A stretch of 64,000 bases of DNA from a phage. The notes beneath the pieces were generated by a model, which worked only from the letters and a program-made list of their open reading frames with translations, did no database searches and had not been told where the DNA came from. Both the position numbers and the translations under genes were made by a program. The DNA is taken from sequence record PZ295659.1. One strand, 5' to 3'. Of the stretch, positions 20,402-25,137 are shown piece after piece. Positions within the stretch are counted from its first letter, which is position 1. Each line of letters starts with the position of its first letter.

Positions 20402-20419
20402 AAGCTCCAGAAGGAGCTT
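20402..20419 (-). terminator. Hairpin AAGCUCC-UUCU-GGAGCUU overlapping the gp39 stop
   Basis: 7-bp inverted repeat aagctcc/ggagctt with 4-nt loop. Confidence 0.4.
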
Positions 20420-22235
20420 AGGACATCCATTCTTTACGAAGTTCTGAATCATCACCCAACAACATTTCAAAGAGTTCTTTCCAATTTTCAGGAAGTTTAA
20501 CTACGTCGTACACAGGGTTCTGAATCATTTCACGATATTCTGACTTTTCAAGGGAGCCTAATCCCTTGATGTATCGAATACTATGCTTAGGAAGTGTATC
20601 TTTAGCTTCTTCATACTCAGCTACAGTATAAAACCATTTTTGAGTTTTGCCAATTTGTGCAATAATTACAGGCGTTTTAACAAAGCGAATACGTCCTTGT
20701 TCAAACAATTCAGGCCAATTACTAAAGAAAGCAAGCAAAGCTGGATAAATACTTCCAAGACCGTCATGATCGGCATCGGTCATAATTGCAATATTACGAT
20801 AGTTTGTATTCTCTGCCTTTTCACCAAGAATAAGACCTGTGATAGCACAGATATCAAAGAGCTCTTTATTCTTCATCATATCAGCATATGACATACCCCA
20901 GCTATTCATCACCTTACCACGTAATGGGAATCCGCCGTGTAGTTCACGGTCACGAACATCAATGAGATAACCAATTGCCGAATCACCTTCTGTTAAAAAC
21001 AATGTCGTATCTGCATCTTTACCACATTGGTTAGCTTTAATATGCTTATGAACCTTAGCTTTAGTTGCCTTTTTAGCTGCTTTAGTTTCTGCAGCTTTTT
21101 CTGCCGCCAATTTACGAGCTAATGCTGCTTCAACAATAGGCATAATCAAGGCTTCGTTTTTAAGAAGTGCCTGAGCAATTTTCTTAGCATCTAATTGGAT
21201 ATGATTACGAATATCACCATACGTTGACGTTAAACGTTCTTTAGTCTGAGAATCAAAACGCATGTTGCTCATGTCTCTAATAAACATCAACATTGTGAGA
21301 CATTCTTTAACACGAGCTTTAGTGACTTCAATACCCTTATATTTCTTTTTAATACCTGGCAAAAGATGTTCGCAGATATCATCCATTACACATTCAACAT
21401 GATGACCACCATTTTTAGTATGGATGTTATTCACATAAGTTAAATGACGGAAGCCATCTGGTGATGTTGTGAATGCTATAGAGACTTTATCATTTTCTTG
21501 AATGATGTTATCTTCGCCAAATTGTTTAGCAAATCGTTTAAAATTACCATCAACCTTTTTACCGTTAAATGTGAACTTGATATCAGGATAAACGACTGCC
21601 AATGTTTGAAGTCGGTCTAAAGTAATATCTAAATAAATTTGAGATAAATTATGTTCTTCAAATGAAGAGAAATCAGGAGTGAAGATTACTTTAGTGCCTT
21701 TACCTTTAGATTTCTTAGAAGACCATGATTTGTTTTCCATTCCGTTTGAACAGTTAACAGTGATTTCATTTTCGCCATCTGATGTGATGCCTGTAAACAA
21801 CGTAGAGAAGATATTAGTTAAACTACTCCCGACGCCGTTCATACCACCAGTCTTGCGTTCAGAGTCATCACCAAAGTTACCACCAGCCTTTGGAATAGTC
21901 CAGGCTGCTACAGGACCTGGAATCTGTTCACCATTTTGGTCGGTGACCATTGCTTGAGGAATACCACGTCCGTTATCTTCCACTGAGACTTGATTATTTT
22001 TAATTTGCACATCAATTTTATTTGCAAACTTAAACGATGTACGAATAGCTTCATCAACCGAGTTGTCAATAATCTCATCGATTAATTTAACCAGACCAGG
22101 AACATATTCAACTTGTTGATATTTACCAAACAAAAAACGCTCGTGGGCTTCTTTAGCCGAAGAACCAATATACATACCACTTCGTTTCTTAATATGTTCT
22201 ACATCTGACAGTACCTTAATTTCATTTTTAATCAT
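20418..22235 (-). CDS. 39: DNA topoisomerase II large subunit gp39, uninterrupted GyrB-like form
   Basis: 605 aa continuous ORF MIKNEIKVLSDVEHIKKRSGMYIGS... covering the ATPase and Toprim regions. Confidence 0.9.
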   Translation of the reverse strand: MIKNEIKVLSDVEHIKKRSGMYIGSSAKEAHERFLFGKYQQVEYVPGLVKLIDEIIDNSVDEAIRTSFKFANKIDVQIKNNQVSVEDNGRGIPQAMVTDQNGEQIPGPVAAWTIPKAGGNFGDDSERKTGGMNGVGSSLTNIFSTLFTGITSDGENEITVNCSNGMENKSWSSKKSKGKGTKVIFTPDFSSFEEHNLSQIYLDITLDRLQTLAVVYPDIKFTFNGKKVDGNFKRFAKQFGEDNIIQENDKVSIAFTTSPDGFRHLTYVNNIHTKNGGHHVECVMDDICEHLLPGIKKKYKGIEVTKARVKECLTMLMFIRDMSNMRFDSQTKERLTSTYGDIRNHIQLDAKKIAQALLKNEALIMPIVEAALARKLAAEKAAETKAAKKATKAKVHKHIKANQCGKDADTTLFLTEGDSAIGYLIDVRDRELHGGFPLRGKVMNSWGMSYADMMKNKELFDICAITGLILGEKAENTNYRNIAIMTDADHDGLGSIYPALLAFFSNWPELFEQGRIRFVKTPVIIAQIGKTQKWFYTVAEYEEAKDTLPKHSIRYIKGLGSLEKSEYREMIQNPVYDVVKLPENWKELFEMLLGDDSELRKEWMS

Positions 22236-22284: not shown

Positions 22285-22300
22285 AAGGGCCGAAGCCCTT
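22285..22300 (-). terminator. UUCG-tetraloop hairpin (AAGGGC-UUCG-GCCCUU) + U-run upstream of gp39
   Basis: Plus-strand aagggccgaagccctt between ORF 22299..22724 and gp39. Confidence 0.55.
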
Positions 22301-22724
22301 ATTTAAATTTAATTTTCTGAAGTGCATCAATTGCGGCCAAACGCCCTTGTTCACTTTTAACTGTAATGACCACATCACCTGATACGATCACCGAACCATC
22401 AACGAATTCTATAGAGCCTTTTTTGAAATCGACAGTTGTATCTGGTTCCGGAACTTCTTCAAAGAATTTAAATTCTGCACCATAAAGCAAAATATCACCT
22501 TGCATACTATGAATAGTTCGGCCATAATCGCCTACGGCTTCTACAGCAATAATCGAAACGCCGTAACCAATCATCTCTTCCACAATAAAATCTTTGGACA
22601 ATAAAGTAGTATGCAAATTAGTATTAAGACGTTTACCGGTCGTATTAAGCATTCTCAAGAAATTATCTTCCTGACCTTTGATAATACGATATTTCTTACC
22701 AACTTCAAAACCTTTAAAAGCCAT
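22299..22724 (-). CDS. Hypothetical protein
   Basis: 141-aa ORF. Confidence 0.5.
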   Translation of the reverse strand: MAFKGFEVGKKYRIIKGQEDNFLRMLNTTGKRLNTNLHTTLLSKDFIVEEMIGYGVSIIAVEAVGDYGRTIHSMQGDILLYGAEFKFFEEVPEPDTTVDFKKGSIEFVDGSVIVSGDVVITVKSEQGRLAAIDALQKIKFK

Positions 22725-22726
22725 AA

Positions 22727-22906
22727 TTAACCCTTCTTAAGTAAGTCGTAAAAACCGCCGTTCACATGTTTAGGAGCAGAAACCCGACGAGTAGACAGAC
22801 GATGACATTCAGGGCAAACATCGTTTTCTCGTTCAGAAATTCTTTTAATTTTTTCATATTCATGGCCACAATCTTCAGATTGACATTTATAGTCGTATAA
22901 TGGCAT
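22727..22906 (-). CDS. Zinc-ribbon small protein (59 aa, two CxxC pairs)
   Basis: MPLYDYKCQSEDCGHEYEK...CPECHRLSTRR; fills the gap between two annotated ORFs; absent from the six-frame track because it is under 60 aa. Confidence 0.55.
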   Translation of the reverse strand: MPLYDYKCQSEDCGHEYEKIKRISERENDVCPECHRLSTRRVSAPKHVNGGFYDLLKKG

Positions 22907-22908
22907 TA

Positions 22909-23337
22909 TTATTCCTTAAAATGTGCTTTCAACATTTGATACAAAGACCATGCCTGGTCATTATTTTCGATAGTAATCGTCATCACAGGAAATTCAGACA
23001 ATTCGTCAAGTTCATCAGAATCTTGCTCTTCGGACGCTTGATATGGATTTTCAACTTCGTCAAAGAACTCTGCTTCATTCGTGGAGAGCCAGATAAAGTT
23101 TTCATCAAGGATATCACCGCCTGTTGCGTATCCAACCGTGCCAGTAGATGTCACAATTTTAGTAGGACGTCCAAGATGGTCAACATCTAATACTTTAAAT
23201 GGTTCCATGCCAAGACGTCGTGCATAAATCCCATTATCAGTGTGGTCTTTAATAAACTCTTCTTGGGCACGTTTATCTATAAATTGGTACCATGAGTTAA
23301 CGCGGAATTTATTAGCCATTAGTAAGTTTCCTTCCAA
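22909..23337 (-). CDS. Hypothetical acidic protein
   Basis: 142-aa ORF. Confidence 0.5.
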
Positions 23338-24616: not shown

Positions 24617-25072
24617 TTAAGCTTTACGAGGAGACACATAGCGAGTGATTTCAGATTCTTTAACAACTCGGAAGTCACCTAAGAATACGATATTGTATAA
24701 CTTTTCACCATCTTCAACCCATTGGTCACTAATGAAGCCACACATAGTATCAGTTTTGCTTGGATAACCGTATTCGTCGATGAAGTCAAATTCTTTATCA
24801 GTCTGGAATTCAACACCTTTACACAAGGCCCATTTGAACTGTACATTAGGTTCAGTAGAAGCAGATGGAGCGCTCACACGAGTTTCCAGGAATTTAGGAC
24901 TTACGTAAGCGTACTGAGTATCCTGACGTCCAAAACTAGGAATGATTCGAACTTTAACTTCTTTAATACGTCCCATGCCATTTGTGCGAAGTCCGACAAC
25001 TTCAACCAGACGACCAGCGGCTTTAGACCGGGATGCAGTTGATACACGCTTAATTTCACCAATAGTAATCAT
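24617..25072 (-). CDS. Hypothetical protein, paralog B of a tandem pair
   Basis: Start at internal ATG 25072 aligning with paralog A; shares FKWALC...GFISDQWVEDGEKLYNIVFLGDF. Confidence 0.55.
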   Translation of the reverse strand: MITIGEIKRVSTASRSKAAGRLVEVVGLRTNGMGRIKEVKVRIIPSFGRQDTQYAYVSPKFLETRVSAPSASTEPNVQFKWALCKGVEFQTDKEFDFIDEYGYPSKTDTMCGFISDQWVEDGEKLYNIVFLGDFRVVKESEITRYVSPRKA

Positions 25073-25137
25073 ATTTTTTCTCTCTTTGTTTAAGTTGAAT
25101 TCATTATACTCCATCCATCCTTGGATGTAAACTGTTT

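Follow-up and report, generated by a model that had tools for sequence, protein, structure and literature searches.

A 59-codon minus-strand frame in a T4-like coliphage is gene 39.2, which very probably encodes a small FmdB-type zinc-ribbon modulator of GroEL

Does a reading frame of fewer than 60 codons, lodged between two longer phage genes, encode a protein, and what might that protein do? The question arises in the window analysed here, a stretch of 64,000 nucleotides of phage DNA (sequence record PZ295659.1). Direct reading of the minus strand and a listing of open reading frames (ORFs) of at least 30 amino acids (aa) both give a 59-aa frame at 22727..22906, with its ATG at 22906–22904 and its TAA at 22729–22727; the product is MPLYDYKCQSEDCGHEYEKIKRISERENDVCPECHRLSTRRVSAPKHVNGGFYDLLKKG. 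Only 2 nt remain on either side, before the TAA of the upstream goF-like gene (22911–22909) and the downstream ATG (22724), so the frame fills the intergenic gap, as the initial annotation had claimed for a 59-aa ORF on this strand. Because an in-frame TAA lies four codons 5′ of the ATG, there is no longer form. An AAGGA element (Table 1) would serve the frame as its ribosome-binding site, and in the window, RB69, T4 and T2 the block GGAATAAT(A/T)ATG varies at a single base.

Table 1 Features of the 39.2 locus in the window
Feature	Position	Strand	Remark	Basis
Gene 39.2 orthologue, coding sequence	22727..22906	minus	FmdB-type zinc ribbon	ORF, PF09723, TIGR02605, identity to RB69p006, dN/dS
Shine–Dalgarno-like AAGGA	22913..22917	minus	6 nt 5′ of the 39.2 ATG; inside the last codons of the goF-like gene	
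First zinc knuckle, Cys8-x4-Cys13 (CQSEDC)	22868..22885	minus	in the turn from predicted strand 1 to strand 2	
Second zinc knuckle, Cys31-Pro-Glu-Cys34 (CPEC)	22805..22816	minus	in the turn from predicted strand 3 to strand 4	
C-terminal motif, A44-PKHVNGGFY-D54	22745..22777	minus	conserved; not covered by the Pfam zinc-ribbon model	
Hairpin AAGGGC-UUCG-GCCCUU followed by UUUG	22285..22300	minus	scores on both strands	consensus scan, sequence

The frame is short, and at the local composition (37.5% G+C) the probability of 59 open codons in a row is about 1.4%, so that length alone is little proof and a chance frame in an AT-rich spacer, from which no protein is made, has to be weighed. Its conservation argues otherwise. 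By tblastn, homologues occur in 956 phage records, across which the reading frame is kept, and in 913 of the 956 at least 80% of the protein is covered; conservation in related phages, which the initial annotation had proposed as a check, is thus borne out. Comparison of the window with RB69, ST0, T2, T4 GT7, VR7 and JS10 by the Nei–Gojobori method gives dN/dS values of 0.01–0.11, with synonymous sites saturated or nearly so against the more distant phages. The differences fall mainly at third codon positions (positions 1/2/3: 0/0/4 for RB69, 4/2/12 for T2 and 7/5/25 for T4). The product also matches family models at E values of around 1e-12, namely Pfam PF09723 (Zn_ribbon_8; 49.3 bits against a gathering cut-off of 34.4, E = 5e-13, residues 1–42), NCBIfam TIGR02605 (FmdB family zinc ribbon protein; 48.0 bits against a curated cut-off of 31.3, E = 9e-13) and PHROG 1076 (phrog_1076; E = 1.9e-12). 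The ribosome-binding site is likewise conserved, and the T4 orthologue has genetic phenotypes, according to the passage on it in PMC5153855. Judged by this pattern of conservation, the chance reading is already refuted, and we hold it to be close to impossible; the substitutions mark the ORF as a real gene under strong purifying selection. It is a sub-60-aa ORF that a length threshold had missed, yet a real, functional gene.

Intact versions of the protein fall into clusters of 101, 84 and 10 members. An interrupted frame in close relatives had been named beforehand as the refuting observation, and the relatives include only two frameshifted variants, each the single member of its cluster (P0007 and P0008), from Shigella phage vB_SsoM_113 and Salmonella phage Manna. 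Both are 47 aa long and lose one A in CCT-AAA-TGT, after Cys31-Pro, from where they continue in the frame that matches a 35-aa ORF of the window (22762..22869). A further variant, from a metagenomic contig (P0003), has an in-frame deletion of DYKCQS, which includes Cys8. These three variants could be sequencing errors or cases of genuine loss. We dismissed plus-strand ORFs at 22766..22900 (44 aa) and 22611..22730 (39 aa) as chance frames, since the substitutions fall as expected for the minus-strand frame and not for these two.

Which gene is it? By sequence the window comes from a T4-like coliphage, a Mosigvirus, and the 1.6 kb around the ORF shares 98.3% DNA identity with phages DCP548 and ST0. 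RB69p006 of RB69 and the ST0 and ZQ3 proteins match the encoded protein at every residue (100% identity); identity falls to 93% for T2 gp39.2 and to about 82% for the T4 GT7 frame (82.5% over residues 1–57). The order cef–goF–39.2–(39.1 or another small ORF)–39, on the same strand throughout, is common to the window, ST0, T2, RB69, T4, VR7 and JS10, and more distant homologues in Krischvirus ECD7, Moonvirus and the Pseudotevenvirus Miller also lie near the topoisomerase large-subunit gene. Protein identity and conserved position together therefore identify the ORF as gene 39.2 (NwgI), which is already described and was genetically characterised in 2012; it is nothing new. The gene is annotated in RB69, ST0, T2, JS10, VR7 and many others, and indeed in most related records, under labels that range from ‘FmdB-like transcriptional regulator’ (ST0) and ‘zinc ribbon domain-containing protein’ (ZQ3) to ‘gp39.2 conserved hypothetical protein’ (ECD7). 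The novelty that the initial annotation had implied is accordingly lost: the window ORF is the rediscovery of a gene that most related genomes have annotated and whose function is published.

The T4 reference itself (NC_000866.4, 3655–3849) annotates 39.2 as a protein of only 45 aa (‘5.1 kDa’), against 58–59 aa in T4 GT7, T2, RB69 and the window. Relative to these four, the reference carries a 1-nt insertion (GC-TCC to GCTTCC) and several G/A differences, and the shortening looks like the result of old sequencing errors.

The protein had been proposed to be a small zinc-ribbon protein, and its membership of the FmdB family, with PF09723 and TIGR02605 both above their curated cut-offs, supports this. 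The accompanying description of two CxxC pairs needs correcting in one half: C31-P-E-C34 is a true CxxC, whereas the first pair, C8-x4-C13, is Cx4C. In an alignment of 147 family members, collected by exhaustive HMMER searching, Cys8 and Cys34 are conserved in 100% and Cys13 and Cys31 in 99%; an N-terminal M-P-x-Y-x-Y is 90–95% conserved, and about 30% of the aligned matches have the Cx4C form of the first pair. The 39.2 protein begins MPLYDYKC, with 17 residues between C13 and C31. Ligand spacing is unusually plastic for a single family, with Cx4C, CxxC, CxC and CxxH forms of the first knuckle and CPxC, Cx4C, Cx5C and CxC forms of the second. Despite these changes of spacing, the four ligands are always present in phage homologues, and the strands on either side are conserved, as is the GGFYD tail. 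The tail motif, A-P-x-x-(V/I)-x-G-G-(F/Y)-Y-D, is kept in T4-like, Krischvirus, Muldoonvirus and Moonvirus homologues, with Gly51 invariant; its counterpart in FmdB proteins of bacteria is ‘SAPxxxFKGSGWYxTDY’.

An AlphaFold2 (AF2) model built from an alignment of 70 sequences has a pLDDT of 81.8, rising to about 88 over residues 1–40 and falling to 64–72 at the C-terminal motif; that depth of alignment was needed, as a model from four close homologues only reached a pLDDT of 51 and was discarded. The predicted strands span residues 3–8, 16–20, 28–30 and 37–40, with the Cys pairs in both hairpin turns, and the model thus predicts a zinc-ribbon arrangement of two β-hairpins with a ligand pair at each turn. 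In such an arrangement Cys8, Cys13, Cys31 and Cys34 would together hold one zinc and fold the first 40 or so residues, and the conserved tail APKHVNGGFYD would follow the ribbon. A sequence search of the PDB found no close relative with a solved structure, and only weak matches to the bL31 zinc knuckle (E > 0.3). Similarly, a Foldseek search of the PDB with the AF2 model returned nothing below E = 0.1, so we infer no function from fold neighbours. The non-significant list consists of zinc-ribbon proteins: RbpA, the N-terminal domains of MCM, RpoP/Rpb12, S27e and a YdjO–SigA model. Since these are generic zinc ribbons, nothing in the fold by itself indicates GroEL.

The genes that flank 39.2, at 22299..22724 and 22909..23319 (both minus strand), each match phrog_622 (E = 3e-21 and 1.6e-39, respectively) and, more weakly, goF profiles; compared with each other by BLASTP they reach only E = 0.024. 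It thus seems that in the window 39.2 is flanked by two goF-like paralogues that have diverged, whereas T4 has goF upstream and an unrelated gene downstream, so that the place of T4 39.1 is taken in the window by a 141-aa goF-like ORF. A GC-rich hairpin with a UUCG tetraloop (Table 1) overlaps the stop codon of this 141-aa ORF; gene 39 begins about 50 nt further on. The hairpin may act as a terminator or stabilise RNA at the end of a cef–goF–39.2–ORF141 transcription unit. Beyond it, the large subunit of topoisomerase II (20418..22235, minus strand) is a single 605-aa ORF, as in RB69. In T4, by contrast, the topoisomerase gene is split into genes 39 and 60, with a translational-bypass element and mobA.

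The best sigma-70-like match in the region, TTTACA-17 nt-TATAAT (11/12) at 25103..25131 on the minus strand, lies just upstream of a 165-aa motB-like ORF (24617..25114) and is a candidate early promoter for the string of genes that follows. The promoter scan of the region gave 26 matches against a shuffled expectation of 23.4, which is not above chance, and we therefore assign 39.2 no dedicated promoter. TTGAAA/AATAAT at 22932–22905, which overlaps the 39.2 ribosome-binding site, was rejected as a promoter, the scan being at shuffled level. Translation of 39.2 would proceed from a polycistronic early transcript, cef–goF–39.2–ORF141, by way of the gene’s own AAGGA ribosome-binding site. PADLOC gave no meaningful match, and the whole window, scanned for tRNAs and Rfam families, yielded none.

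What the protein does is best approached through its orthologues. The gene was reportedly first picked up as RB69 39.2, in the study that characterised it in 2012; in that study the RB43 and RB49 homologues are said to behave alike, overproduction of the protein is said to be lethal to the host, and suppression is said to be allele-specific for groEL and groES. If RB69 39.2 was indeed the first to be selected, the window protein is presumably the very one originally isolated. T4 39.2 (NwgI) was described by Ang and Georgopoulos (Genetics 2012;190:989; PMC3296260, via PMC5153855), and the passage on it in PMC5153855, restated in PMC4396842, presents it as a 58-aa peptide that subtly modulates GroES/GroEL. 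Genetics and biochemistry, according to the same passage in PMC5153855, suggest that it shifts GroEL towards an open form that binds GroES-type co-chaperones of host or phage, and specific groEL mutant hosts completely block a T4 39.2 deletion but not its parent.

The window ORF is very probably the orthologue of this T4-like 39.2, that is, a small early FmdB-type zinc-ribbon modulator of GroEL. Transferred by orthology from T4, the activity of the window protein would likewise be GroEL modulation: it would act on host GroEL and shift it to an open conformation that binds GroES or phage Gp31. The folding of GroEL-dependent phage proteins would thereby be kept efficient on hosts whose GroEL/GroES works poorly, and the gene would be dispensable on standard hosts and required on particular groEL variants. 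The earlier suggestion of a host-factor binder agrees with the accounts in PMC5153855 and PMC4396842, in the parts concerned with this protein, of a T4 orthologue that acts on the GroEL chaperonin. Literature searches returned no paper combining RB69, 39.2 and GroEL, and none combining 39.2, goF, cef and motB.

The annotation ‘FmdB-like transcriptional regulator’, carried by RefSeq phage records and by PHROG 1076, implies a different role, in which the ribbon has DNA, RNA polymerase or a sigma factor as its binding partner at the switch from early to middle transcription. The neighbours motB, goF and cef, as modulators of transcription and RNA metabolism, would suit such a role, and the top structural neighbours, non-significant as they are, include the sigma-binding RbpA and YdjO and the RNA polymerase subunit Rpb12/RpoP. 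RbpA, Bacillus subtilis YdjO and RpoP/Rpb12 do resemble the 39.2 protein in size and in their generic two-hairpin zinc-ribbon fold, but the matches have E values above 0.4 and identities of 16–25%, with no sign of common ancestry or of common partners. The label, moreover, comes from the family name, and the name FmdB stems from an untested guess on one bacterial gene. We found in the literature neither an experiment behind the label of 39.2 nor a functional study of FmdB zinc ribbons, and we know of no demonstrated function for bacterial FmdB-family proteins. As the sole experimental work on an orthologue, in the accounts given in passages of PMC5153855 and PMC4396842, indicates GroEL, we consider a transcriptional role improbable. 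For phage 39.2, which experiments have tied to the GroEL chaperonin alone, the label is probably misleading.

A broader host target would leave the genetics in place and change their meaning: 39.2 would bind host factors besides or instead of GroEL, for example as a peptide-like ligand through the GGFYD tail, and the GroEL phenotype would be one consequence among others. This possibility arises because the tail motif is common to thousands of bacterial FmdB-family proteins and is therefore not a phage invention aimed at Escherichia coli GroEL specifically; the reported lethality of overproduction is compatible with off-target effects too. The allele specificity for groEL and groES that suppression is said to have speaks against it, however, and no other partner is reported in the literature that we found, so we regard a broader target as unlikely. 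A more speculative extension of the chaperonin link is that the C-terminal motif (APKHVN-GG-FY-D-LL) is a peptide like the GroES mobile loop that docks in the apical groove of GroEL, that the whole FmdB family consists of chaperonin modulators and that the phage gene is a captured, shortened copy. The mobile loop of E. coli GroES contains GGIVL; the resemblance of the 39.2 tail to it is a short pattern only, and the bacterial FmdB counterpart reads KGSGWYxTDY. Neither groES nor groEL lies beside two acidobacterial FmdB genes, the two neighbourhoods that we inspected and too small a sample to argue from. We rate this extension a long shot.

As an FmdB-family member, the window protein shares with its bacterial relatives the MPxYxYxC N-terminus, two Cys pairs 17 residues apart and, beyond the ribbon, a SAP...G.G(F/W)Y.(T)D motif. 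It differs in the first knuckle, which is Cx4C in the window protein and CxxC in the bacterial family, and in its end: it stops at GGFYDLLKKG, whereas most bacterial members add 30–60 Ser/Lys-rich, low-complexity residues. The Ser-rich ‘SSSS’ tail of TIGR02605 (CxxC_CxxC_SSSS) is therefore absent from the 39.2 protein; this tail is optional in the family, so its absence marks a short phage subfamily and is no ground for exclusion. FmdB ORFs resembling 39.2 are not confined to T4-like phages: Serratia phage IME250 (Ackermannviridae), Enterobacter phage F5M1E (Vequintavirinae) and the jumbo phages 7t3 and fHe-Yen9-04 have them too, in genomic surroundings that are unrelated. The annotated 41-aa coding sequence of IME250 is the end of an 81-aa 39.2-like frame.

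Among characterised systems, the closest is Gp39.2 (NwgI) of T4 and RB69, which like the window protein is 58–59 aa long, is encoded between goF and topoisomerase gene 39 and has the MPLYDYKC N-terminus, the four Cys and the GGFYDLLK tail. No substantial difference separates them; the window protein has one extra Lys near its C-terminus in comparison with the T4 and T2 proteins. Read as a GroEL modulator, Gp39.2 joins Gp31 of T4 and CocO of RB49 as a phage-encoded adaptor of the host GroEL machine. Gp31 and GroES are subunits of roughly 100 aa in a heptameric lid that caps GroEL, and Gp39.2 is related to none of these proteins in sequence or fold. The 59-aa zinc ribbon, in the terms in which PMC5153855 describes Gp39.2 in its passage on the protein, modulates the conformational equilibrium of GroEL and does not replace the lid.
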